The notes under the pieces were generated by a model. It was not told the DNA's origin, did no database searches, and was given only the letters and a program-made list of their open reading frames with translations. From Eubacteriales bacterium (GTDB lineage Bacteria > Bacillota > Clostridia > Oscillospirales > JAAYXM01), in NCBI GenBank assembly GCA_045546975.1, contig JAZQDV010000007.1:73176-137175 (forward strand): 64,000 nt of DNA, in the 5' to 3' direction. Shown piece by piece: positions 2,468 to 21,563 of the stretch. Position numbers and translations under genes: made by a program. Each line of letters begins with the position of its first letter. Within the stretch, counting starts at the first letter, position 1.

Positions 2468-3505
2468 TTATTCTCCTTTCTCAAGGGTTTCCCAGATGCC
2501 CGCCATATACATAGCACCGAGTGCTCTGTCATAAAGGCCGTAGCCGGGTTTACCCGTTTCGCCCCAGATCATTCTGCCGTGGTCAGGGCGAAGATATCCC
2601 TTAAAGCCAACCTCGTGGTACGCCTTAAGTATTTCAACAACATCGAGTGAACCACATTTTGAGTAGTGTCCGCTCTCTTCAAATGAGCCGTCTTCGAAAA
2701 TCTTTATATTGCGAACGTGGGCAAAATGGATTCTACCCATTGCACCGTACTTTCTTACCATTGCGGTGTAGTCATTAAACTTTGCACAGCCAAGACTTCC
2801 GCTGCAAAGCGTGAGGCCGTGGTGAACGTCATCATAAAGCGCGAGGAAACGGTCGATATTCTTCTCGTTTGTGATGATTCTCGGAATACCGAAAATGTTC
2901 CATGGCGGATCGTCCGGATGTATAGCCATGTTGACGTCGCACTCCACTGCAACAGGCATAATCTCGTTTATGAAGTACTTGAGATTTTCCCAGAGTCCTT
3001 CCTCGCCGATCTTTTTATATTCGTCGATAAGACCTGTCATCTCATCAACCGTGTATGATGCGTCCCAACCGGGAAGCGTCATCTTTGTCGGGTCCATCTT
3101 ATCGACATCAGGCTTATAATATGCAAGAGCGTTTGAACCGTCATAGAGCGGCTGGTCAAGGCGTGACCTTGTCCAGTCAAAAACGGGCATAAAGTTATAG
3201 CAAATGCACTTTACGCCGGCACGGGCAAGTCGGCGGATGTTCTCTTTGTAATTATCTATGTATTCCTGATACTTTCCGCGACGGAGCTTTATGTCCTCGT
3301 GGACGGGAACACTTTCAATAACCTCCATTTCAAGACCCTTTGCGTTTACGTCTGCACGCATTTTGTCAATCTCTTCCTGCGGCCATACCTCACCTACGGG
3401 TACGGAATAAACCGCGGTAACGACGCCCGTCATGCACGGAATCTGACGTATGTAGTCAAGGCTTATGCTATCATCAGGACCGTACCATCTGAATGTCATT
3501 TTCAT
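2468..3505 (-). CDS. uxuA: Mannonate dehydratase
   Basis: 345 aa. The N-terminus MKMTFRWYGPDD and the overall length are typical of UxuA. Confidence 0.88.
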   Translation of the reverse strand: MKMTFRWYGPDDSISLDYIRQIPCMTGVVTAVYSVPVGEVWPQEEIDKMRADVNAKGLEMEVIESVPVHEDIKLRRGKYQEYIDNYKENIRRLARAGVKCICYNFMPVFDWTRSRLDQPLYDGSNALAYYKPDVDKMDPTKMTLPGWDASYTVDEMTGLIDEYKKIGEEGLWENLKYFINEIMPVAVECDVNMAIHPDDPPWNIFGIPRIITNEKNIDRFLALYDDVHHGLTLCSGSLGCAKFNDYTAMVRKYGAMGRIHFAHVRNIKIFEDGSFEESGHYSKCGSLDVVEILKAYHEVGFKGYLRPDHGRMIWGETGKPGYGLYDRALGAMYMAGIWETLEKGE

Positions 3506-8196: not shown

Positions 8197-9039
8197 ATGA
8201 CAAAAGCAATAACACAAGATTTAATTGAAAATTTCAAAAACCATTTAATCGACGAAGAAAAAGCTTCTGCCACTCTGGAAAAATACATCCGCGACATCAA
8301 GGCTTTTTATGTGTGGGTTTCAGGACTTGAAATCAGCAAGCGAACTGTCCTTGACTATAAGGAGTATTTAATTGGTACTTTTGCACCGGCTTCAGTCAAT
8401 TCCATGCTGTCATCTCTCAATGCTTTTTTTCAGTTTAATGACTGGCATGAACTGAAGGTGAAAATGCTGAAAATCCAAAAGCGGATTTTTGTGCAAAAGG
8501 ACAGAGAACTCACAAAGGCAGAATATGTGAGGTTACTCAAAGCCGCAAAAGAAAAAAACAACGAACGACTTTATTTGTTGATGCAAACTATATGCTCAAG
8601 CGGAATACGGGTATCCGAACTAAAATATGTAACGGTTGAATCCTTAAAGTCAAGAAGCGCGACTATTAACAACAAAGGCAAAATGAGAATTGTCCTTTTG
8701 CCCGCAAAGCTTTGCAGTACCCTAATGGAATATGCAAAGAGGCAAAAAATATCAAGCGGGTCCGTCTTTGTTACAAAAACAGGTAACCCGCTTGACAGAA
8801 GCACTATCTGGAAAATGATGAAGGCGCTTTGCATGAGAGCTCAGGTTTCTGAGCGGAAGGTGTTTCCGCATAACCTGAGACACCTTTTCGCGCGTACCTT
8901 TTACACACTCGAAAAAGATATTGTAAGACTTGCAGACATTCTCGGACATTCAAGCGTAAACACTTCACGGATATACACAATGGAAACGGGTGAAATACAC
9001 CGAAAGAAACTTCAAAAACTTGGGCTCTTGCAATTATAA
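8197..9039 (+). CDS. Small tyrosine site-specific recombinase (candidate DNA invertase)
   Basis: 280 aa. N-terminal SAM-like core-binding region. Candidate catalytic residues: R in GIRVSEL, HNLRH, LGH, Y in SRIYT. No arm-binding domain. The stop codon is 2 nt from the left recombination site. Confidence 0.9.
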   Translation: MTKAITQDLIENFKNHLIDEEKASATLEKYIRDIKAFYVWVSGLEISKRTVLDYKEYLIGTFAPASVNSMLSSLNAFFQFNDWHELKVKMLKIQKRIFVQKDRELTKAEYVRLLKAAKEKNNERLYLLMQTICSSGIRVSELKYVTVESLKSRSATINNKGKMRIVLLPAKLCSTLMEYAKRQKISSGSVFVTKTGNPLDRSTIWKMMKALCMRAQVSERKVFPHNLRHLFARTFYTLEKDIVRLADILGHSSVNTSRIYTMETGEIHRKKLQKLGLLQL

Positions 9040-9040
9040 A

Positions 9041-9071
9041 AAGCACCACATAATTGAAATTATGTGGTAAG
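9041..9071. repeat. Left recombination site of the invertible segment (AAGCACCACATAATTGAAATTATGTGGTAAG)
   Basis: Palindromic arms ACCACATAA/TTATGTGGT around the asymmetric core TTGAAA. Its partner at 9304-9334 carries TTTCAA. Confidence 0.8.
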
Positions 9072-9303
9072 ACATAACAAATCAGGCATCAAAGGGAACT
9101 AAATTACCGTATGGCAAACGCAAATTTTTTCAAAAAACGACACAGTATTTAGACCGGTCTTGTTGATTTTGTAAAACCGGTCTGCTCCGTTGTGCCATTT
9201 TTAATGCACATTGATGATTTTTTCATAAAATAATTGCGAATCATTGACAAACCCCCTTCGAGCATATTATAATACGTATGCTCGAATATTATTTTGAAAC
9301 AGA
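9072..9303. other. Invertible DNA segment (inverton) carrying a promoter
   Basis: Bounded by the two 31-bp sites, adjacent to the recombinase gene, and contains the 9244-9273 promoter. Confidence 0.7.
9244..9273 (+). promoter_or_regulatory. Near-consensus sigma-A promoter inside the invertible segment, currently facing tetR and the giant gene
   Basis: TTGACA (9244-9249), 18-nt spacer, TATAAT (9268-9273). The -10 element sits in the loop of the CGAGCATA...TATGCTCG hairpin. Confidence 0.7.
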
Positions 9304-9334
9304 AAGCACCACATAATTTCAATTATGTGGTAAG
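9304..9334. repeat. Right recombination site (AAGCACCACATAATTTCAATTATGTGGTAAG)
   Basis: 29/31 identical to 9041-9071. The only differences turn the central TTGAAA into its reverse complement TTTCAA. Confidence 0.8.
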
Positions 9335-9418
9335 GCTCTTTTTTTTACTTTACACCTGTAACGAGCATTACATAGTATTTATCCGCAGAGATGTGTTGTA
9401 TGAAAGGACTGAATTGAA

Positions 9419-9976
9419 ATGGACAGTTTTGATGAGTTCGACAAAAAGAAAGCAATCATTGCAAAGACCTGGGATTATCTTTTGAAAACCGGCCTCGCGA
9501 ATGCTTCAATAGGAGATTTGTGCAGAGAGACAAAGCTTGCTCAAAGCAGCTTGTATTATTGGTTTGAAAACAAGGACGATATATGGATAAGCGCCGGAAA
9601 GTACGGCACCTCAAAGGTAGTTGACGCACTCCTGGATTTTACTATGAACCACACAAACGATGTCAGCAAGTACTTCGACACTCTTTTAGACGAGGTCGAA
9701 AAGTACAAGTACGAGTTGCGCCTGGCTGTTCAGATTACCACAAGTCCCGTGTTCGGTAATCGTATGCGTGATAAGGCAAAGGATTTCAGGCTGTGGTATG
9801 AGCGCTATGCCGAAAAATTGATGAACATATTTGGCTGTTCCTATCTACAAGCAGAAACCTTTATTTATTCTATCATCGCCTATGTAATTGACTACGCTAT
9901 ATGGGATGATAGAGACAAAACACAAATGCTGCTTGATAATCTTCGCACGAGACTAAGCGACAAGCTCGGCATTTAG
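9419..9976 (+). CDS. TetR/AcrR-family transcriptional regulator
   Basis: 185 aa. N-terminal HTH ASIGDLCRETKLAQSSLYYWFENKDDI. Confidence 0.8.
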   Translation: MDSFDEFDKKKAIIAKTWDYLLKTGLANASIGDLCRETKLAQSSLYYWFENKDDIWISAGKYGTSKVVDALLDFTMNHTNDVSKYFDTLLDEVEKYKYELRLAVQITTSPVFGNRMRDKAKDFRLWYERYAEKLMNIFGCSYLQAETFIYSIIAYVIDYAIWDDRDKTQMLLDNLRTRLSDKLGI

Positions 9977-10003
9977 CAGACTTTTGAGAAAGGACGAAAA
10001 GGA

Positions 10004-10252
10004 TTGATAGAAAATACCTATGGAAGCTGGGAGCTCTTGGCAATAATTTTCGCAGTTCCCCTGCTATTGCTTATATTGCTTGCTTTTGTTGTGAATGTCT
10101 GGCTGCCCTTCATAAGAAACAGACATTACATAAAAAAAGAAATGCACAGATCAGACGGCGGTGAATACAGATACTGGAAGCGAGAGCTTAAACTGCTGTA
10201 TCTGAGGCACATTCCGATAGTCGGATGGTTTTTCCGTGAAAAATACAGATAA
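10004..10252 (+). CDS. Small single-pass membrane protein (TTG start)
   Basis: 82 aa. One clear TM helix (LLAIIFAVPLLLLILLAFVVNVWLPF) and a basic C-terminus. No family recognised. Confidence 0.45.
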   Translation: MIENTYGSWELLAIIFAVPLLLLILLAFVVNVWLPFIRNRHYIKKEMHRSDGGEYRYWKRELKLLYLRHIPIVGWFFREKYR

Positions 10253-10513
10253 ATATTCAGCTTCGGCTGTTTGTTTATATATTAAGGCGGCGAGCAATTT
10301 CCTTACTTTGACAGATGTTGGCAGTAGTTTGAATAAGTACATGCCGCCCGTAAAAAATTGACAACTGCCGCAAGACATCTTGGAGGTGAGGTCATTTATC
10401 CGCACATTATTTTGCAAAAAGAGCAGAGTCAGCAAAATAATATATCCCAGAAACTCTGCCCGAATGCGAAAACGGAATTTTCGCAAAAATCTATTTAAGG
10501 AGGCGTTTTTAAG

Positions 10514-13500
10514 TTGAGACTTAAAAGAATTATGGCTATGTTCCTTTGCTTTGCAATGGTACTTAGCACAATGGGAACAACAGTATTTGCAGAAAATACT
10601 GCTGTTGTTTCAGCCGAGGCAACCGCCGTTTCGGACAATAATCTGTATGTAAATACAGATTACAATTCCGAGACAGAAGGCTACGGCGTAACAAGATTTG
10701 CCAACTATAATGCGGCATATGCATATGCTGTAGCAAACAACACATCTGCAACCATTGTTGTCGAGAAAAACAACAGTATTTCCGGGTTCTGTTTTGATAA
10801 TAACCACAAGAATTATACTAAACTTGCGGTTGTAATTAAAGATGGAGCCACAATGGGTGTATCGCTTTCAAAGTGGGATATGACCTATCCTGTTACTGTA
10901 GAAGCAGGTGGTACTCTCACATGTGCTCGCCCGAAAAATGCCAGTGTCAGCAACATTCACATTAAGAATAAGCTAATCATTGGTACTGAGGGTTCTGATA
11001 AACAAGCATACTGCTATTTCCTAAGCGACAGCTACCAGGATTGTGATATTAGTATCCGTTACAACGGTTCTATTACTGCATACAATGCCGTTATGACCGT
11101 TCAGGATCTTGATGCACAAGGCAGCTTCACTGCAACCGATAGCAATATCACAGTTGACGGTGCATTCGCATCTGCCACTTGGTATGCTACAACGCTTACT
11201 GATTCGGATATGCAGATCAATGGTAACCAGATCAGCGGTGGCCTATCTGATTTTTCCGGTGGAGATAATAATCAACTCGGAAAAGTAACGCTGAACGGTG
11301 ATTCTTCTATTTCGTTTGCTGAAGGCTCAGCAGTTGATGTAGCGGCTACTGTTACTGTAAACGGAAACTCCTACATTACAGCTGACACGCTGACTGTTGA
11401 GAAAAATAAGAAAATTAACGTCAACGGTACATCTTCTGTAAGTGCTCAGACACTTACAAATAACGGTACCATCGCAACTACAAGCGGATCCACGGTAACT
11501 GCCAAAACAGTGAGCGAGGAATCCACCGGCACCGTAACGATTGACGGTGAAGAAGCTGCGTTTGATGAGAGCGGAAACCTTGTTCTCCCCGCTGCACCTG
11601 TCGCAACTGTCGACGGTGTACCTTACACAGAGCTTCAGGCTGCACTCGATGCGGCTGCAGCAGGCGAAGGCAATGTAACAGTTGAGATCCTTGAAAATAT
11701 CAATCTCACAAATGTTGACTGGAATCCCGTAACCGTAAGCGCTCCCAAATATCCTGTTGTTACTGTTAATGGTAACGGCAAGATAATTACAGGTCTGAAT
11801 GATATGCTCTTTGCGGGCACATGGGCTGGTGGCTCCGGCCTTATCATCAACGACCTTACAATTGCGGACTCCGCTATTATTAATGATAAAGACGATACAA
11901 ACGGCAATGTTGGCGTTGGTGCGTTCATTGGATTCCCCCAGGCAAGTGCAACAGTTACTCTCAACAACTGTCATCTTGTTGACTCCCGTGTTGAAGGTGG
12001 TCACTGGACAGGCGGTCTCATAGGTTATGCAGCAGGTTACGCTGGCAATGACGGTCCTGTATTCATGAATTTGACAATCAACGAGTGCTCCGTTACCGGC
12101 TCCACCATTACCGGTAAGGGCTCTGCAGGCGGTATCATCGGTCATGCTACAGGTAATGCTTGGACACAGGTTACCATCACAGATACAACTGTTTCCGGCA
12201 ATACCGTTGCGTCTACAGGTTCTTCTACCAACAAAGCCGGTGCTGTAATCGGTACTATTGGTGCTGCCGGTCAGGCGACAACTGTTAACGGTGTAGAAAA
12301 AACCGGCGGTGTATCCGTTGCAGCAACAGTTAGCGGTAACACTGTAACATCCAGCAGTACAACAATTACAACAATCTACGGTCGTCAGGGCACCGACACA
12401 GGTATGCTCTATGTATCTGGCGGTGAATATGACAATTATCCGATAGAAGAAAATGTTGCTTACGCTGCTCCTATCGAAGGGTATGAAATTGCAGATAATG
12501 GCAATGGTACTTGGGGCATAGCAGAAGAAACTATTCTCTCCGGCGCAGGTACACAGGAAGATCCTTATCTCATTGAAGATATCGATGACTTGACCCTCTT
12601 TAGAGATAACGTAAACAACGGAACAGATTATGACGGTCAGTATGTAAAGTTGATGAGTGATATCGACCTTACAAGCGTCGAAAACTGGATCCCGATTGGT
12701 GCGTATGGTTCACACGCAAACGAGATGACATTCCGCGGTTATTTTGATGGTAACAACAAAACTATCAGCAATCTGACCGTCAATGACACAACAAGCACAG
12801 CTGATATACTTGGCTTGTTCGGTCATATTCATGGCGACGGTATGAAGAATACTTTGGAGCCGTCTGTCAAGAATCTGACATTGACCAATGTAAACATCTC
12901 AAGCACAGACAGCGCTTCAAGAATCGGCGGTCTTGCAGGTAATCCTTACACATGTTATCTCGAGAATGTACATGTCTCAGGAACTATTTCAGGCGGTAAG
13001 TGGACCGGCGGTATCGCAGGTAACTGTTACACAGTATTTGAAAACTGTTCATTTACCGGAACTGTTGACAGTAACAACCAGGCAGGTGGTATTGCCGGCG
13101 CAGGCGATGCTCGTGTATACAACAGCAAGGTCATCGGTGATATTACCGCTACATATTGGGCAGGCGGTATCATCGGTAACGGTCAGGAAGGCGCTTCTGC
13201 TGTAGGCTGTTATGCAAAGGGTACTGTTACTGCTGAAAGCAACTGGTACTTTGGTGTCGGTGGTATTGCCGGTGTTGGCGGACACGGCTACGAAGGCAGT
13301 GTTTATGAAGATAACTACTTCGACGGTGAAGTATATCTCGGAGAAACCAAGGTAAATGCAATCGTTGTCGGTTTTGTAAACGCAGACGGCAACGAAGCAA
13401 TGAATACAGTTGTAGATGGCAACTCATGGAATACTGAATACTATGCAGCAGATACCCCGGTCGTTGTTACAGCTGATGTAACATCAGATATTTCTCCTGA

Positions 13501-16500
13501 GGACTGGGCAGCGTCCGCATCTGAGGAAAAGAGCTCAGTTCGTAACAACAATCTCGTTATGTTGGAAAGCGACATTCAGTATGTAGATGCAACTTCTATG
13601 GATAATGTTACCATTATGAAGTTCTCTGAGGTAACTGAAGAAGAGGTTGAGGTCCAGATCGAGAAAAACAACCTTGTTGCAAAGATAGGTGAAACCGGAT
13701 TCGCATCTCTCGCAGAAGCTATCGTGGCTGCAAATGCTATGACAGGCGATGTCACTGTTGAAATTTACGCTAAGGTTGAATATAACGACGCAACAGCAAG
13801 CCTTACAGGTGCATATGATTCTATCAACTTTGTTGGTAAAACAGAAGATGCTGAAATTTCTATCACCAGAAATGGCTCTAATGGTTACATTTCAGGCGAG
13901 GGCAATGATTGTAAGGTAACATTTACAGACCTTATTCTTTCAAAGCCCGAAGGGCATTACGCAAATGATGCGGGCTTCATGAACATGGCGTTCAGTGTTT
14001 ACAGAGTTGCCTCTGTCAAATATACGAACTGTCAGTTCCCCAACGGTGCATGTGCGGCAGGATGCCCGACTACATATACAAACTGTACTTTTGAAAAATC
14101 TCACGAAAAGTATGCTTTATGGGCATATGGTACAGAGGTTGTAGTTGACGAGTGTACATTCGATGATGACAGAGGTATAAAGATGTATGCTGAGGGCTCT
14201 GCAAAAACAACCGAACTTACAGTTACGAACACGGACTTCTCTAAATTGACATCAAAGCCTGCTATCGTAGCTACACTCGGCCAGAGCATAACTCTTTCAG
14301 GCAATACATATTCTGCCAAGGGTGTTCTCGAGCTTGAGGATAACGGCAGCTCCAACGGTATTGAAATTACTTCCGAGGATGTTGTGACCTGTATCAGTGA
14401 CGCATATCCGGACGGATGCGGTGTTCTTGTTGACGGTGCCATCTATCGTACTGTTGCAGAAGCAGCAGAAGTTGCAGAGGAAGGCAGCACGGTAACACTT
14501 CTTCACAATTCAACAGAAACAGTTGAACTTTCAGAGGGCGTAACCCTTGACAAGAACGGCTTCACTGCTGACGGTGTAACTGTTAAAGTATCTGTTGCCG
14601 CAAAAATCGGTGAGACATATTACGAGACCGTTCAGGCGGCAATCAATGCGGCGCAGAGTGGCGACACCGTTGAAATTCTCCCCGGAGAATATGACCCTAT
14701 CAACATCAGCAGCAAGAATATCACCATTCAGGGTACCGTAGGTGATAACGGTGAATTGCTTACCACCATCAAGGGCGGCAATCCTGCAATTACCGGCCAC
14801 TCTTTTAACGGTACGATTAAGGATCTTAAGATCGTTGATGCATGGAAGGTTATGTATGCAGAACCGGCAGGAAATATAACCGTTGATAATGTTTATGTAA
14901 CCGGTGCTACATACGGTTTCCACCTTGTAGCTTATTCTGAAGGTCTGACATGGACTATCCAGAATAGCTATATGGATTTGCGTTGGGCAAACTCCTTAGG
15001 TGTATACAAAGACGGTGATGCAGAAATCATCATCAAGGGTAACGAATTTGTTTCAACAGATCCGTACTACTCTGATTACGGTGCTCTTCATGTGAATTCG
15101 TTCTTGCCGAATGTAACTGTTGAAGAGAACATTTTCCGTGAAAACGCAAAGATTTACATCGATGCTTCTGTAACGGACACTTCCAACATCAATATTTCCA
15201 AGAACTATCATGCTGACGGTGTTGAAAATGCATTCGCAGATGATACTGACGGCGTGACGGTAAAAATTGATTCGTACTATACCGTAATAGAAGAAGACGG
15301 TACTCTTTCAGGCCTTGTAGAAGTTGTTGATCCCGCCGCAAAAATCGGCGATACAACATACGAAACACTTGCAGCGGCTATCGCGGCTGTCAAGGAAGGC
15401 GAAACAATCACAATGCTTGCTGATACAACTGTTTCAGAGAATGTTACACTTCCTGCAGGCATTACATTTAACGGTAATGGAAAGAAGATCAGCAGAGAAA
15501 ACGGTGCAATTATTTATGCGGGCGGCGAATTGACATTTGAAGGATATACAACTATTGCTAATTTCAATGCCAACGGCAAAACAATTAACATTGGCGAGGG
15601 TGCAACCCTTGAAACAACTGACGGAAGAATGGTTATCGGTCACGGAGCTACATTTAACATTACAGGCTCGATTGCCGATGCGAAAACTGCAGATGTAACA
15701 AATATTACACCTTCCCTCATTGCCCCCGGAGTATCATTCACAGGTGCAGGTGTGAACTTTAATGTAACAAATGCATATGTTAAATTTACAGCTTACTGTT
15801 CTTCAAAAAACAGTAATGCGAGCGGCACATATAACATTAATGTAAATAACAGCATTTGGGAACAGACAGGTTCTTTGGTTTTCTCAGAGCCTACAAACGG
15901 AATGGACCCGACCTTTAACTTCAAAGTTAAAGACAGCGTACTTAACAGCACAAGCCACCTTGTTTTTGCTGTAACAAAGGGCGAAATCGTTTTTGACAAT
16001 TCTGTTGTAAACGAAGGCGTACACAGACAGCTTGAAAACCGCAGCAACCTGACAATTAAGAACGGTTCTGTTGTTTATGCTGCTCACGCAACAAGCTCCA
16101 ACGCAAAGAATCCCGGCACAACTATCGTTGAAAACGCAACTTACATAGCTACCGGTGATTTTAGTGGCTCGGATGTCGGCACAGGCACACTTATTGTTAA
16201 GAAGGGTGCAATTGTGAATATGGGTAAGATTACCAAGGCAAATATCGTTGTTGACGCAACCGATATGGCTGCCGGCGATGTTGTTGGTATCACAGCTAAC
16301 CTGTCCGCCCTTGAAGGTACAATAAGTGTTGTCAATAACAATCTGGACGCTGAAATTGTAGACGGAGCGATTGTTCTTGTTGAAAAACCAGTTGCACAGA
16401 TTGGTGATGAGAAGTTTGCATCGCTCGAAGAGGCATTCAAAGCAGCAACCGATGGATGTACCATCACTTTGATGAGCGACATTACCGTAAGCGAGCTTTG

Positions 16501-18346
16501 GGATTGCCGTTACAACGGTGCAAAGTTCACTGTTCCTGTAACAATCGACGGTAACAACAAGACACTTAAACTCACGGGCGCAGTTGATGACAAGAACTGG
16601 AACACAGTATTCAGATTTGAGGCTGATGCTACAGTCAAGAACCTTACAATCGACGCGAGTGAAGCAACAGGCATCCAGAGAGGTATCTCTGCTAAGTCAA
16701 GCATTACTGTTGAAAACTGCACATTCATAGGTAACGGAACATCAACAAAGCGCGGTGTTATCTTCGGTGAAGGCGCAGGCACAGCACTTTCCGATGTAGT
16801 TGCAACAATTACAAACTCCAAATTCACAAATTGGAGCTATGGCGTTTCTGATAACCAGAGCGGTAAGGATGCAAAGTCTGTTTCTGTTACAGGCTCTACC
16901 TTCATTAACGCAAGCGCACTCTTGAGTGCTTCCGACTCGGTAACATTTACAGGCAATACTGTATCAGACGGTTATGTAAATATCACTTCTTACACCGCAG
17001 CTGATACTGCTACTGTTGTTGCAACAGGCAACAATCTTGTAGGCACTGATGATGAAATTACTGTAAATCCCGAAAACATAACCTCAGATGATTCATTCAT
17101 TACTCCTGTTGCCAAGATTGGCTCTAAGTATTATGAGACCTTAGATAAAGCAATCAGCAAGGCAGCAGTTGGTGACACAGTTGTTCTTTTAACTGATGTT
17201 GAGCTTTCGGATACAATTACAATTCCTACTGACAAGAAGATTACTCTTGACTTAAGCAGCAAGACAATCACAGGTACAGATAATACTGAAAAGAATTTCA
17301 GTCTTATCGATAACCGCGGTGATCTTACCATTACAGGAAACGGTACTATGACTCTTACTGCTACCGTCAACTCCGGATGGAACCGTTACTCTGCAGTTCT
17401 TGCAAACAACCCCGGCGGTAAGCTTACCATTGAAAACGGTACGTTTGAGCACCTCGGTGGCACCGATATGGCTTACGGTATTGACAACCTTACAAACGGC
17501 AAGGGAACCTATGCTGAAACCATAATTAACGGCGGTACAATCAAGTCCACTTACCGTGGTATCCGTCAGTTCCTCAACGGTATTGAAGCACAGAACATTC
17601 TCACAGTTAACGGCGGTACTGTTGAAGGCACTAACAAGTCTATCTGGATGCAGGATCCGAACAAGAACGCAAACACAGGTACACTTACTGTTACTGATGG
17701 CGCTACCTTGAACGGCGACGTGTATCTGACTGTAACAGAAGGTTCTACCGAATGGCCTGTTGAAGTAAGCATTGCTAAATCAGCAGTAAACGGACAGGTT
17801 CTTACTAATGGAAACGAGCCTGCAGGATATGAGCTGGTTGAAGAAAACGGAACCTACGGCGTAATAGAAAAAGAAATAGTAACTCCGTTCAAGGACGCTC
17901 CGTTGTTCTTGGCAGGACTTCCGGATGAAGTTATTGACGGTGTAACATACCACCCCGTTTATATGGCAACCTCTATTGATTCATTGAATTATAGAAAGGT
18001 CGGATTTGATTACACCTTCTCAATTTTCGATACTGAAACAGGCGAGGTTACTTTCTCGGTACCGTATACAACCGAAACAAGTGAGGTATACTCTTCTATC
18101 AGCGATGCTAATACAACATATACAGTTGACAGCATTGGCGGAAACGGTGAATACTTGTTTATGAATAAGTTGCTGTTCCACGCAGAACATTATCACAACA
18201 ATAACACAAAGGTTACCATCACACCGTACGCTATTGATACGAACGGAAACAAAATCACCGGCTGGACAATTGATATGACAAATGAATTCTATAAGTCACT
18301 TCAGTCTGGTGATGTAAAACAGGATATGTTCAAGGAGGGAAACTAA
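10514..18346 (+). CDS. Giant secreted surface protein (2610 aa) with GLUG-like motif blocks and multiple parallel beta-helix-type modules
   Basis: AGGAGG RBS 10 nt before the TTG start. Signal peptide MRLKRIMAMFLCFAMVLSTMGTTVFA|ENT. Two blocks of GG[LI][IA]G motifs. At least 6 recurrences of the module cap V-A-[KQ]-I-G-x-x-x-[YF]-x-[ST]-L-x-x-A. No LPXTG, SLH or dockerin seen. Confidence 0.9.
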   Translation: MRLKRIMAMFLCFAMVLSTMGTTVFAENTAVVSAEATAVSDNNLYVNTDYNSETEGYGVTRFANYNAAYAYAVANNTSATIVVEKNNSISGFCFDNNHKNYTKLAVVIKDGATMGVSLSKWDMTYPVTVEAGGTLTCARPKNASVSNIHIKNKLIIGTEGSDKQAYCYFLSDSYQDCDISIRYNGSITAYNAVMTVQDLDAQGSFTATDSNITVDGAFASATWYATTLTDSDMQINGNQISGGLSDFSGGDNNQLGKVTLNGDSSISFAEGSAVDVAATVTVNGNSYITADTLTVEKNKKINVNGTSSVSAQTLTNNGTIATTSGSTVTAKTVSEESTGTVTIDGEEAAFDESGNLVLPAAPVATVDGVPYTELQAALDAAAAGEGNVTVEILENINLTNVDWNPVTVSAPKYPVVTVNGNGKIITGLNDMLFAGTWAGGSGLIINDLTIADSAIINDKDDTNGNVGVGAFIGFPQASATVTLNNCHLVDSRVEGGHWTGGLIGYAAGYAGNDGPVFMNLTINECSVTGSTITGKGSAGGIIGHATGNAWTQVTITDTTVSGNTVASTGSSTNKAGAVIGTIGAAGQATTVNGVEKTGGVSVAATVSGNTVTSSSTTITTIYGRQGTDTGMLYVSGGEYDNYPIEENVAYAAPIEGYEIADNGNGTWGIAEETILSGAGTQEDPYLIEDIDDLTLFRDNVNNGTDYDGQYVKLMSDIDLTSVENWIPIGAYGSHANEMTFRGYFDGNNKTISNLTVNDTTSTADILGLFGHIHGDGMKNTLEPSVKNLTLTNVNISSTDSASRIGGLAGNPYTCYLENVHVSGTISGGKWTGGIAGNCYTVFENCSFTGTVDSNNQAGGIAGAGDARVYNSKVIGDITATYWAGGIIGNGQEGASAVGCYAKGTVTAESNWYFGVGGIAGVGGHGYEGSVYEDNYFDGEVYLGETKVNAIVVGFVNADGNEAMNTVVDGNSWNTEYYAADTPVVVTADVTSDISPEDWAASASEEKSSVRNNNLVMLESDIQYVDATSMDNVTIMKFSEVTEEEVEVQIEKNNLVAKIGETGFASLAEAIVAANAMTGDVTVEIYAKVEYNDATASLTGAYDSINFVGKTEDAEISITRNGSNGYISGEGNDCKVTFTDLILSKPEGHYANDAGFMNMAFSVYRVASVKYTNCQFPNGACAAGCPTTYTNCTFEKSHEKYALWAYGTEVVVDECTFDDDRGIKMYAEGSAKTTELTVTNTDFSKLTSKPAIVATLGQSITLSGNTYSAKGVLELEDNGSSNGIEITSEDVVTCISDAYPDGCGVLVDGAIYRTVAEAAEVAEEGSTVTLLHNSTETVELSEGVTLDKNGFTADGVTVKVSVAAKIGETYYETVQAAINAAQSGDTVEILPGEYDPINISSKNITIQGTVGDNGELLTTIKGGNPAITGHSFNGTIKDLKIVDAWKVMYAEPAGNITVDNVYVTGATYGFHLVAYSEGLTWTIQNSYMDLRWANSLGVYKDGDAEIIIKGNEFVSTDPYYSDYGALHVNSFLPNVTVEENIFRENAKIYIDASVTDTSNINISKNYHADGVENAFADDTDGVTVKIDSYYTVIEEDGTLSGLVEVVDPAAKIGDTTYETLAAAIAAVKEGETITMLADTTVSENVTLPAGITFNGNGKKISRENGAIIYAGGELTFEGYTTIANFNANGKTINIGEGATLETTDGRMVIGHGATFNITGSIADAKTADVTNITPSLIAPGVSFTGAGVNFNVTNAYVKFTAYCSSKNSNASGTYNINVNNSIWEQTGSLVFSEPTNGMDPTFNFKVKDSVLNSTSHLVFAVTKGEIVFDNSVVNEGVHRQLENRSNLTIKNGSVVYAAHATSSNAKNPGTTIVENATYIATGDFSGSDVGTGTLIVKKGAIVNMGKITKANIVVDATDMAAGDVVGITANLSALEGTISVVNNNLDAEIVDGAIVLVEKPVAQIGDEKFASLEEAFKAATDGCTITLMSDITVSELWDCRYNGAKFTVPVTIDGNNKTLKLTGAVDDKNWNTVFRFEADATVKNLTIDASEATGIQRGISAKSSITVENCTFIGNGTSTKRGVIFGEGAGTALSDVVATITNSKFTNWSYGVSDNQSGKDAKSVSVTGSTFINASALLSASDSVTFTGNTVSDGYVNITSYTAADTATVVATGNNLVGTDDEITVNPENITSDDSFITPVAKIGSKYYETLDKAISKAAVGDTVVLLTDVELSDTITIPTDKKITLDLSSKTITGTDNTEKNFSLIDNRGDLTITGNGTMTLTATVNSGWNRYSAVLANNPGGKLTIENGTFEHLGGTDMAYGIDNLTNGKGTYAETIINGGTIKSTYRGIRQFLNGIEAQNILTVNGGTVEGTNKSIWMQDPNKNANTGTLTVTDGATLNGDVYLTVTEGSTEWPVEVSIAKSAVNGQVLTNGNEPAGYELVEENGTYGVIEKEIVTPFKDAPLFLAGLPDEVIDGVTYHPVYMATSIDSLNYRKVGFDYTFSIFDTETGEVTFSVPYTTETSEVYSSISDANTTYTVDSIGGNGEYLFMNKLLFHAEHYHNNNTKVTITPYAIDTNGNKITGWTIDMTNEFYKSLQSGDVKQDMFKEGN

Positions 18347-18347
18347 G

Positions 18348-18509
18348 ATGAGAAATTACGAAGAACCAAGACTTGATATTATTGAGCTTGAAGCAAAGGA
18401 TATCATTCAGACAAGCGGCATCTTAACTCCGGGTGGAGATGCCCAGATTCCGGGAACGGGAGTAATCGTACCTATTCCGGGAGCTTCCGCCTTAGATAGC
18501 ACGTATTAA
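18348..18509 (+). CDS. 53-aa ORF starting 1 nt after the giant gene's stop codon
   Basis: The ATG starts 1 nt after the TAA of the giant gene. Translation: MRNYEEPRLDIIELEAKDIIQTSGILTPGGDAQIPGTGVIVPIPGASALDSTY. No signal peptide and no Cys. It shares TGVIVP[IL]P with the next gene. Confidence 0.5.
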   Translation: MRNYEEPRLDIIELEAKDIIQTSGILTPGGDAQIPGTGVIVPIPGASALDSTY

Positions 18510-18524
18510 GAAATAAATATCTCG

Positions 18525-18560
18525 AATAACGGGCAGGTAAACAGCCTGCCCGTTATTTGC
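18525..18560 (+). terminator. Hairpin (probably a partial terminator) after the 53-aa ORF
   Basis: AATAACGGGCAGG-TAAACAG-CCTGCCCGTTATT, followed by a weak T tract. Confidence 0.5.
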
Positions 18561-18589
18561 AGATACAAACAGCAAAGGAATGATAAACA

Positions 18590-19459
18590 GTGAGAAATTT
18601 CATTAAAACTATATGTTTGTTGTTAGCAACACTTAATTTGTTTTCCATTACTGCTTTTGCAGAGCTGGAGGTAGGCAATAATTTTGACCTTGGCAATTCA
18701 ACCGGCGTTATTGTTCCGCTTCCGAGCGATGATAAAGATGACGGACAGCAGGGTTCTTCATCCAATAGTAACAACAACGGAAATGGCAACGGCGGCAATA
18801 ACAGCGTTGGTGGCGGTGGCGGTTCTTACATACCGGCTACAAAACCGGACAAGGAGACCGAAACACAACAAGAATCAACGCAAACAGAAAATAATATCAA
18901 AACTTTTTCCGATATAAAACAAAACGATTGGTTTTACAGTGATGTAATGTTTGTTTCTAATAATAAGATTATGACAGGTACGAGCGAGAGTGAATTTTCA
19001 CCGAACACCACACTTAATCGTGCCATGATGATTACAATTTTACATAGGATTGACGGAGACAGTTCCACTTATAAAAAAGATATATTTAATGATGTTGAAA
19101 AAAACAGCTGGTACGAAAATGCTGTAAATTGGGGATATGAAAATAAAATCGTTACAGGCACAAGTGCGAATACCTTTGCTCCCAAAAACAATTTAACCCG
19201 TGAGCAGCTTTGCGTCATGCTTTACAATTATACAAAACATATTGGAGTTAAAACTGAATTTGCCGACACATCCTCTTTCTCTGACAACAACACAGTTTCA
19301 GATTGGGCAAAAGATGCCGTTTCCTGGGCAGTGCAGGAGAAGATTGTGACAGGAAAAGGAAACAATACACTTGCTCCCAAGGACAGTGCCACAAGAGCGG
19401 AAGCAGCAGCGGTTATAAGACGGTACACAGAAAAATTTGTAGAAATCGAGGAAAAATAA
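18590..19459 (+). CDS. Secreted protein with three C-terminal SLH (S-layer homology) domains
   Basis: GTG start. Signal peptide ...LFSITAFA|ELEV. Low-complexity N/G/S linker. Three SLH repeats (FSDI..DWFYSDV, FNDV..SWYENAVNW, FSDN..SDWAKDAVSW). Confidence 0.88.
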   Translation: MRNFIKTICLLLATLNLFSITAFAELEVGNNFDLGNSTGVIVPLPSDDKDDGQQGSSSNSNNNGNGNGGNNSVGGGGGSYIPATKPDKETETQQESTQTENNIKTFSDIKQNDWFYSDVMFVSNNKIMTGTSESEFSPNTTLNRAMMITILHRIDGDSSTYKKDIFNDVEKNSWYENAVNWGYENKIVTGTSANTFAPKNNLTREQLCVMLYNYTKHIGVKTEFADTSSFSDNNTVSDWAKDAVSWAVQEKIVTGKGNNTLAPKDSATRAEAAAVIRRYTEKFVEIEEK

Positions 19460-19460
19460 A

Positions 19461-19886
19461 TTGCCACCATCATTGATTTCCAGATCATTAAGGTTTTTTA
19501 TTACAAGCATAATTTGTTCTTTGCCCATATTTATCGGACAGTTGCTGTCAATCACAGATAACGGTATATTGTTTTTTTCTTTTATAGTTTTTGCTATTGA
19601 GATAGGCATTGACTCATACCATTTTTCTTTTGTTTTCTTAGGAATAGAAAATTATTGTTTTTATCAGCTTTTGCCACTCGTTATATATCTTATTACCGGT
19701 TTTTTTACTTGTTTGTTATTTCCGCCTTTTATATTCAACAGAATTTTTCTGCCTCTAAGATTTGCAGGAATCTTCGGAATGAGTACTATTGCATCAATAG
19801 CCATCACTTCGATAATCTTTATAGTAATAGTGACCGTTCTGAGGTTTTTCGGAGCAAGAGCAGGTCGTTTATTTGCAAATATGTAA
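19461..19886 (+). CDS. Possible polytopic membrane protein (TTG start)
   Basis: 141 aa, very hydrophobic, AT-rich DNA, no clear RBS. It could be an artefact of composition. Confidence 0.3.
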   Translation: MPPSLISRSLRFFITSIICSLPIFIGQLLSITDNGILFFSFIVFAIEIGIDSYHFSFVFLGIENYCFYQLLPLVIYLITGFFTCLLFPPFIFNRIFLPLRFAGIFGMSTIASIAITSIIFIVIVTVLRFFGARAGRLFANM

Positions 19887-19956
19887 ATGTTCACTGTGAC
19901 CTTGCGAAGTTTTTGTATGGTGACGGCATCGTGGATTTAAGCAAAGGAGAAAGTAT

Positions 19957-20148
19957 ATGTTTGGAAAGAATAAAATATGTACAAAATGCAAGATAGGAAA
20001 AGAAAGTTACGAACTTGATAAACTTTCTCATGTATGTCCGTACATTGTGTGTTGGAAACACGGCAAATGCAAATACTTTTTACCACTTGAAAAGCCAGAA
20101 CGAACAGATTTCTTTAAGAGACTCAAAAATTATGTGTTGCATAAATAG
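19957..20148 (+). CDS. Small Cys-rich protein (63 aa), family unknown
   Basis: AAAGGAGA RBS 6 nt upstream. CTKC...CPYIVC...C pattern suggests metal binding. Confidence 0.5.
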   Translation: MFGKNKICTKCKIGKESYELDKLSHVCPYIVCWKHGKCKYFLPLEKPERTDFFKRLKNYVLHK

Positions 20149-20185
20149 GCTCGGAAAACTTCTTGAGGCTTAATCTTCAAAAAAT

Positions 20186-20226
20186 AAAACTCACAAGGGA
20201 TGAAATTCCTTGTGAGTTTTTCTTTT
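20186..20226. terminator. Bidirectional terminator; right edge of the accessory island
   Basis: AAAACTCACAAGG-GATGAAATT-CCTTGTGAGTTTT. Confidence 0.75.
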
Positions 20227-20231
20227 CTCTA

Positions 20232-20603
20232 TTATGCTTTCCAGAGGCTGTGGAGGTTGCAGTATTCATAAACTCCTACTACTTTGCGTCCGCCTGTTGC
20301 AAATGCCGCACGGGGCGCCTCACCCGGCTTTAAGTACTTTATATCAAAGCCATCTGCATACTCAACGCAAATCCACTCGATGTAGTGCTCCTCCGCCATC
20401 GGGTGCTCTACCGAGCCAACCGTAACGCTGAGAGTATCACCCGATACCTCATATACGGGGATGTGCTTTTCAGTTGCAGCATCTGTTGTTCCGGGGACTA
20501 TCTCCTGCATCTTTTCACCGCAGCATACTACGGGGACCTTGCGGTCACGAACCTTAGTTACGATGTTTCCGCAATGTGAACAGATAAAAAACTTCATTTT
20601 CAT
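20232..20603 (-). CDS. Desulfoferrodoxin (superoxide reductase)
   Basis: 123 aa. N-terminal desulforedoxin-like CSHCGN...CCGEKM. C-terminal SOR domain with EKHIPV and HPM..EHYIEW. Confidence 0.85.
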   Translation of the reverse strand: MKMKFFICSHCGNIVTKVRDRKVPVVCCGEKMQEIVPGTTDAATEKHIPVYEVSGDTLSVTVGSVEHPMAEEHYIEWICVEYADGFDIKYLKPGEAPRAAFATGGRKVVGVYEYCNLHSLWKA

Positions 20604-20618
20604 TCTCCTTTTTTGAAA

Positions 20619-21416
20619 TTATATTTCGCCGCGTGCCATTCTGACGATATCACCTACACCGTCGAGAACAATCGACGGACGATATGCGTATGTTTTAAGC
20701 GTTTCCCGTGTCGAAACTCCCGAGAGAACAAGAACGGTTGACATACCGCTTTCAAGTCCCGAAATAATATCAGTGTCCATTCTGTCTCCTACCATTACCG
20801 CATCCGCGGAATGGCAATCAAGAAGCTTGAGTCCCGTTCTCATCATAAGCGGATTTGGTTTTCCGCAAAAGTATGCGCGCGTTCCCGTGGCAATCTCAAT
20901 CGGAGCAACAAGCGCACCGCACGCAGGTGCGATTCCGCTGTCAATCGGCCCTGACACGTCAGAGTTTGCACCGATAAGCTTTGCTCCACCAAGGACGAGG
21001 TTCGTTGCCTTTGTGAGTGTATCAAGTGAATATGACTTTGCCTCACCGACTACAACATAGTCAGGATTTACATCATTCATCATAATACCCGCATCATAAA
21101 GCGCGTTGGTAAGACCTGCCTCACCGATAGCATACACCGAACAACCGGGTGCCTGCTCCTTTAAGAACGCTGCAGTAGCAAGAGCGCTTGTGTAGAAATG
21201 CTCCTCGCCGACCTCAAGGCCAAGGCGGTGAAGCTTCTGCTGAAGCTCGCGTCTCGTATAACCGCTGTTGTTGGTTAAGAAAAGATATTCCTTCTTTTCG
21301 TCGTGCAGCCATTTTATGAACTCGGCAACGCCGGGAAGAACCGTATTGCCGTGATAGATAACACCGTCCATATCACATATAAAGCCGCATTTTGAATTAA
21401 ACTCTATTTTGCTCAA
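20619..21416 (-). CDS. HAD-IIA family sugar phosphatase (NagD-like)
   Basis: DMDGVIY motif I, LTNNS motif II, GDRMDTDI motif IV. 265 aa. Confidence 0.8.
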   Translation of the reverse strand: MSKIEFNSKCGFICDMDGVIYHGNTVLPGVAEFIKWLHDEKKEYLFLTNNSGYTRRELQQKLHRLGLEVGEEHFYTSALATAAFLKEQAPGCSVYAIGEAGLTNALYDAGIMMNDVNPDYVVVGEAKSYSLDTLTKATNLVLGGAKLIGANSDVSGPIDSGIAPACGALVAPIEIATGTRAYFCGKPNPLMMRTGLKLLDCHSADAVMVGDRMDTDIISGLESGMSTVLVLSGVSTRETLKTYAYRPSIVLDGVGDIVRMARGEI

Positions 21417-21563
21417 TGTTTTTCTCCTTATACATATATTACTCTATAATTTTAACATTATTTTCCTTATGCCGTCAACTTAAATCTTTTTTTGTTTACA
21501 TTATGATGTGATTTTGATATAATGATACACGGATTTTTAAGCTGAAGCCTCAAGGAGAAAGTT

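Follow-up and report, generated by a model that had tools for sequence, protein, structure and literature searches.

The subject of this analysis is a small gene in a window of 64,000 nucleotides (64 kb) from a contig of a Eubacteriales bacterium. An open reading frame (ORF) of 53 codons lies on the forward strand at positions 18348-18509, with its ATG at 18348 and its stop codon at 18507-18509. It directly follows a giant ORF (10514-18346, +) that encodes a secreted protein of 2610 residues. The TAA of the giant ORF occupies 18344-18346 and a single nucleotide (nt) separates it from the ATG of the small ORF. Both this junction and the 53-residue translation are exactly as given in the initial annotation, which was made without database searches. 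A very stable hairpin and genes for a stalk protein with S-layer homology (SLH) domains, a membrane protein of 141 residues and a small Cys-rich protein follow on the same strand. The ORF encodes the leader-core precursor of a large, undescribed peptide family from gut and rumen Clostridia.

The first 30 kb of the window contain 215 ORFs of at least 40 residues. ORF length alone thus provides no evidence of coding, and the case rests on conservation. Besides the ORF itself, a homologue search of 5.8 billion proteins recovered three relatives that are 66-75% identical. These share identical synteny, in which a very large gene ends 1 nt before the small ORF, and an SLH gene and a gene of 141 residues come next. 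The initial annotation had named conservation of the protein downstream of homologous giant genes and the ratio of nonsynonymous to synonymous substitution rates (dN/dS) as checks on the small ORF, and both speak for a gene. Indels among the aligned relatives are all multiples of 3 and the frame is kept. The dN/dS of the peptide gene is 0.17-0.42 compared to 0.14-0.34 for the neighboring genes (0.14-0.25 for the end of the giant gene, 0.14 for the SLH gene and 0.34 for the 141-residue gene). The peptide gene is under purifying selection. A hidden Markov model (HMM) of the peptide family matches the translation at E = 1e-21, and we consider it virtually certain that the ORF is a real gene and a member of this family. 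The ORF had been described as unannotated. It is already deposited as a protein (NCBI-derived record P0001) and is hence unnamed rather than uncalled.

The peptide gene has a strong Shine-Dalgarno sequence, AAGGAGGG (18332-18339, +), which lies 8 nt 5' of the ATG inside the final codons of the giant gene (K-E-G) and is kept in four of four aligned lineages. The junction of stop codon, 1 nt and ATG is found in the window and the three relatives, with locus L044 as a fifth lineage. This is compatible with the translational coupling suggested earlier. A junction this tight is not universal though. In the sister cassettes L126, L127 and L129, 26-42 nt separate the two genes, and across the family the spacing is mostly below 40 nt. 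The gene also has a Shine-Dalgarno sequence of its own. The hairpin behind the gene, for which the core at 18525-18557 had been noticed before, is real and extends over 18518-18565 (+; dG -31.9 kcal/mol, z = -9.9 against shuffles). Its stem is invariant in four lineages, and an equivalent stem with a canonical U-tract is found in L114, L126, L127 and L129. The U-tract is weak in the window, which is why a simple terminator scan missed the hairpin. The hairpin is probably an intrinsic, possibly leaky terminator closing the transcription unit of the giant and peptide genes. An Rfam scan of window positions 9000-21500 gave no match. The composition of the peptide agrees with the initial description, with no Cys, no hydrophobic N-terminal segment that could form a signal peptide, a net acidic N-half and a C-half of 30 residues that includes 4 Pro and 6 Gly.

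Leader and core of the peptide family

A family profile built from four peptides and run against 1.84 billion representative proteins (E <= 1e-3) produced 106 matches, which correspond to 106 clusters at 50% identity. Nearly all are peptides of 32-69 residues, and the part they have in common is the N-terminal 25-35 residues. Two large Bacteroidota repeat proteins among the matches (P0005 and P0015) reflect summed weak repeat matches rather than relatedness and were discarded. A hand-made, back-translated DNA pattern of the family scanned over species-representative reference genomes matched at least 120 stretches, which is a lower bound, and 115 peptide ORFs of 28-57 residues were recovered from these. 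The pattern loci stem mostly from Lachnospiraceae, Oscillospiraceae, Ruminococcus and other Clostridia of gut and rumen. A metagenome scan with the family pattern added only three matches, all of them leader-only. Pfam and NCBIfam scans of the window peptide and 93 family members recognized no family. The searchable literature contains none of the family motif strings, and no description of the family or of its gene arrangement was found in the literature searched.

The family consensus reads M-[KR]-x-Y-E-x-P-x-h-E-h-h-E-F-E-x-E-D-V-I-[TQ]-T-S-G and is followed by a short, variable, acidic tail with many Gly and Pro residues. S23 is invariant in the alignment of the family, where Y4, P7, D18, I20 and T22 each reach a conservation of 90% or more. 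A conserved leader of ~23 residues joined to a hypervariable core is the architecture seen across the family peptides. Family conservation delimits a leader of residues 1-23 in the window peptide, MRNYEEPRLDIIELEAKDIIQTS (18348-18416, +). The core comprises residues 24-53, GILTPGGDAQIPGTGVIVPIPGASALDSTY (18417-18506, +), and is hypervariable across the family while being under purifying selection within the subfamily of the window. The leader is conserved across hundreds of peptides with unrelated upstream C-termini, which suggests that it addresses a common machinery rather than an individual neighbor. We infer that the leader is a handle for a PqqD-type recognition element, and a cleavage site is predicted after T22-S23. 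Leaders of this kind would be bound by the recognition element (RRE) of pathways for peptides that are ribosomally synthesized and modified after translation (RiPPs), and such a leader function is likely in the family.

The initial annotation had judged a RiPP precursor unlikely, given the absence of modifiable Cys residues and of a nearby maturase. This judgment is not supported. The peptide has the leader-core architecture, and PqqD, ABC exporter, HprK-like, NTP_transf_5 and peptidase genes occur beside members of its family, two of which are accompanied by homologues of radical S-adenosylmethionine (rSAM)/SPASM enzymes. The conserved leader and variable core of RRE-dependent RiPP-like precursors are both found in the family. 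PqqD, a peptidase and an exporter are encoded together with the precursor in many family loci, and the window and L001 are not among these. Judged by these features, the family looks like it works as an RRE-dependent RiPP precursor and not as a lasso peptide. The assignment to lasso peptides was considered and rejected. The window leader contains the family-conserved residues Y4-x-x-P7-x-L9 and T22-S23|G24, with a spacing ~4 residues longer than in lasso leaders, and the family HMM scores published lasso precursors at 1-5 bits. The window core starts at G24 and has D31 at core position 8. The ring acid is not conserved, as residue 31 is Asn in all three close relatives and none of these has an acid at core positions 7-9, which is also lacking in L129 and L127. 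The inspected loci contain neither a lasso cyclase nor a B2 protein.

Other peptide classes fit no better. For a substrate of double-glycine leader peptidases or peptidase-containing ABC transporters (PCATs), which would have a GG, GA or GS cleavage motif and hydrophobic residues at -4, -7, -12 and -15, the leader end T-S(-G) and the hydrophobic register are a misfit, and the ABC exporters of the family have no C39 domain. An AgrD-type peptide was rejected as the leader is acidic and strand-like, Cys is absent and no AgrB is encoded, with the 141-residue membrane protein having no Pfam or fold match. A sortase substrate with an LPXTG-like motif was rejected as a signal peptide and a transmembrane tail are both lacking, and the Pro of the IPGTG sequence in the peptide is not conserved (VSGTG in P0002, VGGTG in P0008).

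Enzymes encoded with family members

Following the divergent cassettes outward exposed two further genes, which tblastn then located across family loci. The first encodes an HprK-like P-loop protein of ~248 residues and was found in 23 fetched loci, of which 21 belong to the 120 pattern loci, which are 8-kb stretches not centered on the peptide. Hpr_kinase_C is matched in 9 of 19 members, below the Pfam threshold. The other, a peptidase of ~145 residues, was located in 16 loci. ORF clustering across 27 family loci revealed a recurrent order of genes for a large secreted protein, the peptide, a small anchored protein, the HprK-like protein, a protein of ~86 residues, the peptidase and proteins of ~560 and ~385 residues. 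The ~86-residue protein is a PqqD (E = 3.5e-15), which is present in 10 family loci. The ~560-residue protein is an ABC exporter with ABC_membrane and ABC_tran domains but without a C39 domain, and the ~385-residue protein belongs to NTP_transf_5 (E = 3e-41). The peptidase encoded after PqqD is a soluble serine peptidase of the Sec11/SipW-like type, with a profile match to Sec11/signal peptidase I (E = 7e-4) and invariant Ser, His and Asp.

A lasso cyclase of the Asn-synthetase-like type was found neither in the window nor among the ORFs of the 27 clustered loci, and a transglutaminase-type B2 protein (Transglut_core3) is missing from every inspected locus. Given this set of HprK-like, PqqD, NTP_transf_5 and ABC proteins, the family appears to provide the precursors for a relative of the lasso pathway that has no cyclase. 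A different enzyme accompanies the Cys-containing members L092 (5279-6779) and L046 (5587-7120), where an rSAM/SPASM maturase homologue is encoded directly 3' of the peptide gene. In that sense, the leader is used as a RiPP leader in these loci. The best match of both enzymes is TIGR04463-like and far below every curated family cut-off. The L092 locus also encodes PqqD and HprK-like proteins.

The earlier statement that no maturase is encoded nearby is accurate for the entire 64-kb window. The window contains no second copy of a family peptide, no immunity gene and no sensor, and its flanks consist of housekeeping genes. Relatives differ in this respect at the end of the cassette, where HprK-like and signal-peptidase-like genes follow the gene of the small Cys-rich protein 'zn64'. 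The HprK-like gene lies directly 3' of zn64 in the close relative L044 as well as in L127 and L128. Both genes are missing after zn64 in the window, where a terminator and then a convergent HAD hydrolase gene follow.

Single loci show further arrangements of the family peptides. L009 contains four tandem family peptide genes of 31-33 residues (2481-3049) beside a divergent LytTR regulator and a GHKL (HATPase_c_5) kinase (66-2140), and HprK-like, peptidase and NTP_transf_5 genes follow the array. This arrangement is as in peptide-pheromone loci. In two unrelated loci (L065, 3080-4572; L118, 6332-7821), an AbiEi/AbiEii toxin-antitoxin pair is located between the HprK-like and PqqD genes. In L098 (1745-2830), a gene for a ThiF/E1-like adenylyltransferase homologue with an N-terminal extension of ~108 residues overlaps the end of the family peptide gene by 25 nt. 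The encoded protein may represent another class of tailoring enzymes for this leader.

Secreted neighbors and the tips of anchored stalks

The initial annotation likened the ORF to small ORFs that neighbor genes for large surface proteins in Clostridia, and the pattern loci bear this out. Among the 99 family peptides with any upstream ORF, the ORF is on the same strand in 85 cases and no more than 70 nt away in 59. In 48 of these 59, it spans at least 500 residues or is cut by a contig end, and the median size of the uncut ones is 738 residues. Pfam matches of the upstream proteins include Flg_new, BspA-type leucine-rich repeats (LRR), GLUG, DUF285 and similar extracellular domains. Of 38 upstream proteins of full length, 32 begin with a signal-like segment, and all of 59 lack a C-terminal transmembrane anchor. 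The C-termini sort into few types. A C-terminal module of ~150 residues with the final helix ...ALYxYxxAAxxY (cluster 1) occurs in 37 of 78 upstream proteins, and in 35 of these 37 it ends no more than 15 residues before the stop codon, directly 5' of the peptide gene. The cluster-1 module has no Pfam or PDB match. A second C-terminal type, ...YLVYTDxxGNxxTIYG, is found in L031, L074 and L095, where the gene 3' of the peptide does not encode a low-complexity stalk. The protein encoded there has 316-362 residues, a signal peptide and a C-terminal transmembrane anchor, and the one tested, from L095, has a weak sub-threshold match to BspA-type LRR.

The giant protein of the window starts at a TTG 10 nt behind a Shine-Dalgarno sequence (AAGGAGG, 10497-10503). 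It has a signal-like N-terminal segment and no recognized cell-wall anchor, and no Pfam or NCBIfam domain is found above threshold over its full length. The starts of repeated segments follow the pattern 'PVAKIG.x.Y.TL..A'. A GLUG-like region around residues 675-880 has counterparts of the GLUG type in other proteins encoded upstream of family peptides. Orthologous giants in the matching cassette have 1892-2443 residues. The C-terminus of the window giant differs from the cluster-1 module and is of a type common to L048 and L054. A protein search with this C-terminus yielded one partial match, and its single-sequence structure model is unusable (predicted local distance difference test, pLDDT, 48).

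The stalk protein (18590-19459, +) consists of a signal peptide, a tip, a low-complexity linker of Gly, Ser and Asn, and three SLH domains (E = 1e-34, 3 stretches). Signal-peptide cleavage presumably occurs after AFA, and the predicted mature N-terminus is a tip of 21 residues, ELEVGNNFDLGNSTGVIVPLP (18662-18724, +), which contains STGVIVPLP. The stalk-tip peptide segment is ELEVGNNFDLGNSTGVIVPLPSDD. Four lineages keep the tip almost unchanged, whereas the linker behind it drifts. The peptide core repeats this tip of the adjacent stalk in its motif GTGVIVPIPG (residues 36-45; 18453-18482, +), which is invariant in four lineages except for I/V at residue 43. The pair of core GTGVIVPIPG and tip STGVIVPLP is found in the window, L001 and L044. 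Core and tip change jointly between lineages. In sister cassettes, the pairs are ...ENETPFNPA and ...IENETPFLPL (L126), ...QNETPFNPV and ...IENETPFLPA (L129), and ...EEDKLPFLPA and ...GEDKMPFLPA (L127). The cluster-1 module forms the C-terminus of the giants in L114, L126 and L127 and not that of window-type giants. Within this cassette, tips and cores of the type [ED][TLM]PF[LN]P go with cluster-1 giants, and the GVIVPxP motif goes with the window-type C-terminus.

In many other loci, a protein anchored by a transmembrane segment, a lipoprotein modification or SLH domains carries its free terminal tip on a long linker of low complexity, and this tip often resembles the core. Such echoes are seen in L116 (...GPNQTPWG and ...KPNQTPWG), L029 (...DNMTEKG and ...ENMTDKG), L056 (...LPEDSFF and ...LPDDLF), L069 (PEGEEID and PEGEEIE), L006 (...AIELPFVPAK and AIELPFVPYVP...), L060 (IDLPFVPYE and NELPFEKV) and L118 (AELPFVPDG and IDTPFEPAY). 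Tips with ELPF[VI]P are found in L017, L038 and L085. Exact 6-mer echoes within a locus were observed 4 times with 0.29 expected, and 0 of 3000 permutations reached 4. We lean slightly toward the view that core and stalk tip have a shared partner. The giant protein would be the docking partner of both.

The remaining elements of the cassette follow the stalk gene or precede the giant. The 141-residue membrane protein (19461-19886, +) has four long helices and an invariant FNRIFLPLRF motif. It belongs to a narrow family of 29 homologues, which are always encoded 3' of the SLH or peptide gene in this cassette. Its AlphaFold model is confident (pLDDT 88.9), but matches were found neither to a Pfam domain nor to a fold in the PDB. 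The 63-residue Cys-rich protein zn64, MFGKNKICTKCKIGKESYELDKLSHVCPYIVCWKHGKCKYF... (19957-20148, +), looks like a zinc ribbon and is conserved at the cassette end, with 47-61% identity in L001-L003, L044, L127, L129 and L130. A strong intrinsic-terminator-like hairpin with a T-run (20186-20220, +) closes the unit of SLH, membrane protein and zn64 genes.

Upstream of the giant, the window carries two perfect copies of a 24-nt palindrome, ACCACATAATT-GA/TC-AATTATGTGGT, at 9045-9068 and 9308-9331, 239 nt apart. The copies lie between genes for a XerC/D-like tyrosine recombinase (8197-9039) and a TetR protein (9419-9976). They may be operators bound by TetR, or a phase-variable switch may use them for recombination. 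The order of recombinase, TetR, small ORF and giant is also found in L127. The small ORF in the window (10004-10252, +) encodes 82 residues with one hydrophobic segment between the TetR and giant genes, and genes of 81-82 residues occupy the corresponding position in L126 and L127.

Possible mechanism and known systems

The explanation that we favor, with chances that seem about even, is that the gene encodes a precursor of this family that is guided by its leader, exported, and mimics the stalk tip on which the giant docks. Co-transcription of the giant and peptide genes, with translation probably coupled, would provide roughly matched amounts of both products. A PqqD-type protein might bind the leader, and the signal-peptidase-like enzyme might cut after the invariant Thr-Ser. 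Signal peptidases favor small residues at -1 and -3. The core might then be phosphorylated or hexosylated and be exported by the ABC transporter. The genes for maturation and export in the window genome would have to be located outside of the 64-kb window. The giant, exported through Sec and lacking an anchor, could be held on the cell by its C-terminal domain docking non-covalently on the tip of the SLH stalk. The exported core, a soluble copy of the tip, could sit in the same site, serving as a placeholder that the stalk later replaces or competing and thereby tuning retention versus release. This full mechanism of docking and mimicry is offered tentatively, and its likelihood falls clearly short of even. 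Doubtful to a similar degree is the broader idea of an undescribed surface-display system, in which a C-terminal socket of the giants would sit on an anchored stalk tip, the exported copy in the core would control retention or release, and tip and core would form a specificity code. The stalk in such a system could be wall-, lipid- or membrane-anchored, and the toolkit would be derived from lasso pathways by loss of the cyclase.

Several results weigh against the favored explanation. Maturation and export genes are absent from the 64-kb window and from the orthologous locus L001, and processing and export of the window peptide are therefore extrapolated from relatives. The label of the HprK-like protein rests on sub-threshold matches. 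The echo of the core in the tip is detectable in a minority of family loci only, a single shared 5-mer is not significant (4 vs 3), and a fuzzy test based on BLOSUM ranks gives 8 vs 2.7. Across the family, the class of core motif is not associated with the upstream cluster-1 module (Fisher p = 0.21), and we claim specificity between domain and motif within the giant/SLH cassette only. A competitor made 1:1 with its target also seems wasteful, and the peptide might act as a placeholder or as a release factor.

The peptide could instead be an ordinary secreted RiPP-like product, such as an antimicrobial or a signal, with its position next to the giant gene reflecting co-expression only and its resemblance to the tip having no meaning for binding. 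A leader joined to hypervariable cores is a hallmark of bioactive RiPPs, the toolkit is common to characterized lasso peptides, two members are accompanied by rSAM/SPASM maturase homologues, and the tandem peptides of L009 sit beside LytTR and GHKL genes in the style of a pheromone locus. Such a product would leave unexplained why most members lie within about 40 nt of a gene for a large secreted protein, why core and tip covary, and why echoes occur at the free termini of envelope-anchored stalks. The window also encodes no immunity gene or sensor, and we consider a product of this kind unlikely. Less likely again is a peptide that stays in the cytoplasm and binds the C-terminal domain of the giant ahead of Sec export or in its course, perhaps keeping it competent for export, with the leader being merely part of a small folded or binding unit. 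The tight junction in five lineages, the common transcription unit with the giant, the lack of a signal peptide and the lack of export genes in the window would all suit a cytoplasmic partner. Such a role accounts poorly for a leader that is kept over hundreds of peptides despite unrelated upstream C-termini, for PqqD, peptidase and ABC exporter genes beside many members, and for the extracellular location of the mimicked tip.

Core and tip might also both be substrates of a single extracellular or envelope enzyme or sorting step, such as a protease, a transpeptidase or glycosylation, rather than ligands of the giant. The motifs are short, terminal, linear and Pro-rich ([LTM]PF[VIL]P, GVIVPxP), like many enzyme recognition sites, and the 141-residue membrane protein is conserved in the cassette. 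That protein has no catalytic signature or fold match though, and across loci the motif is not accompanied by any conserved candidate enzyme. Motifs also differ strongly from one locus to the next (PNQTPWG, NMTEKG, PEGEEI and others), so that locus-specific pairs of partners fit better than one enzyme, and we rate a common enzyme as slightly less probable still than a cytoplasmic partner. The notion that the ORF is non-functional or purely regulatory comes close to negligible. The act of translation would then matter to ribosome traffic alone, such as when it exposes or masks the hairpin, and the amino acids would be irrelevant. The ORF is indeed short, stands directly before a conserved hairpin and has no name in databases. 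With the dN/dS and indel pattern of a constrained protein, specific residues conserved family-wide across distant taxa and a core that covaries with another protein, this notion appears already contradicted by the conservation data.

Mimicry of the stalk tip by an exported core, if true, would bear on how Clostridia of gut and rumen display their large surface proteins. These proteins serve in adhesion and substrate capture, and many of them, including the giant of 2610 residues, have no recognizable anchoring mechanism. Tip mimicry would explain the display of anchorless giants, reveal a peptide-based regulation of display, and give RiPP-type machinery a structural or regulatory rather than an antibiotic role. 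The model yields a testable trio of socket domain, tip and core peptide for each locus. A widespread unnamed peptide family is now tied to large surface proteins, stalk proteins and a cyclase-less relative of the lasso toolkit. Even on a conservative reading, a new precursor family and a new type of leader peptidase become available for genome mining.

The proposed arrangement has parallels in cellulosomal anchoring in Clostridia, where cohesin-dockerin pairs mediate display on SLH-anchored scaffoldins. As with cohesin and dockerin, we propose that a secreted protein without an anchor would be held non-covalently through a C-terminal module on an SLH wall protein, and the stalk anchor shares the linker and SLH domains of scaffoldins. 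Unlike cohesin, which is a folded domain, the stalk element is linear and short, with about 7-10 residues in the tip. The C-terminal modules have no counterpart in Pfam or the PDB, and the cargo gene is accompanied by one for a soluble peptide copy of the tip. Peptide mimics also compete in Gram-positive signaling, for example in enterococcal pairs of pheromone and inhibitor peptides. These originate in signal sequences or in short ORFs whose leaders are of the Sec type, and their receptors are cytoplasmic. As in these mimics, a small exported peptide resembles another locally encoded sequence and would act by occupying its binding site. The family peptides differ by their RRE-type leader and their presumed extracellular structural target, and no receptor or regulator is linked in the window. 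Similar to precursors of the ranthipeptide or sactipeptide type, the Cys-containing members L092 and L046 are followed by rSAM/SPASM homologues, whereas the window peptide lacks Cys and the window encodes no rSAM/SPASM gene.

The closest comparison is with the lasso peptides of Firmicutes. The pseudomycoidin cluster encodes a cyclase, a precursor, an HprK-like kinase, a PqqD-like B1 protein, a B2 protein, an NTP transferase and an ABC exporter, with the kinase phosphorylating the C-terminal Ser and the transferase being required for hexosylation (PMC6993621). The set of kinase, B1, NTP transferase and exporter (K/B1/N/D) has been characterized in the pseudomycoidin (PMC6993621) and paeninodin (PMC5067487) clusters, and PadeB1 has an affinity of about 5 nM for its leader (PMC5067487). 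Published leaders of Firmicutes lasso peptides follow the register [WY]xxPxhExh...T-x|G (PMC7533575, Table 3). Family loci differ from lasso clusters in having neither cyclase nor B2, with the Sec11/SipW-like serine peptidase in the place of B2, and the family leader is longer and poorly matched in profile. Precursors located behind giant surface-protein genes and mimicking stalk tips have not been reported for lasso peptides either. Family loci nevertheless share the accessory set of HprK-like, PqqD, NTP_transf_5 and ABC exporter proteins with paeninodin and pseudomycoidin. The family leader has the register M-K-x-[WY]-x-x-P-x-h-E-x-h with a T at -2 followed by a small residue, often Gly, and the cores are likewise acidic and rich in Gly and Pro.

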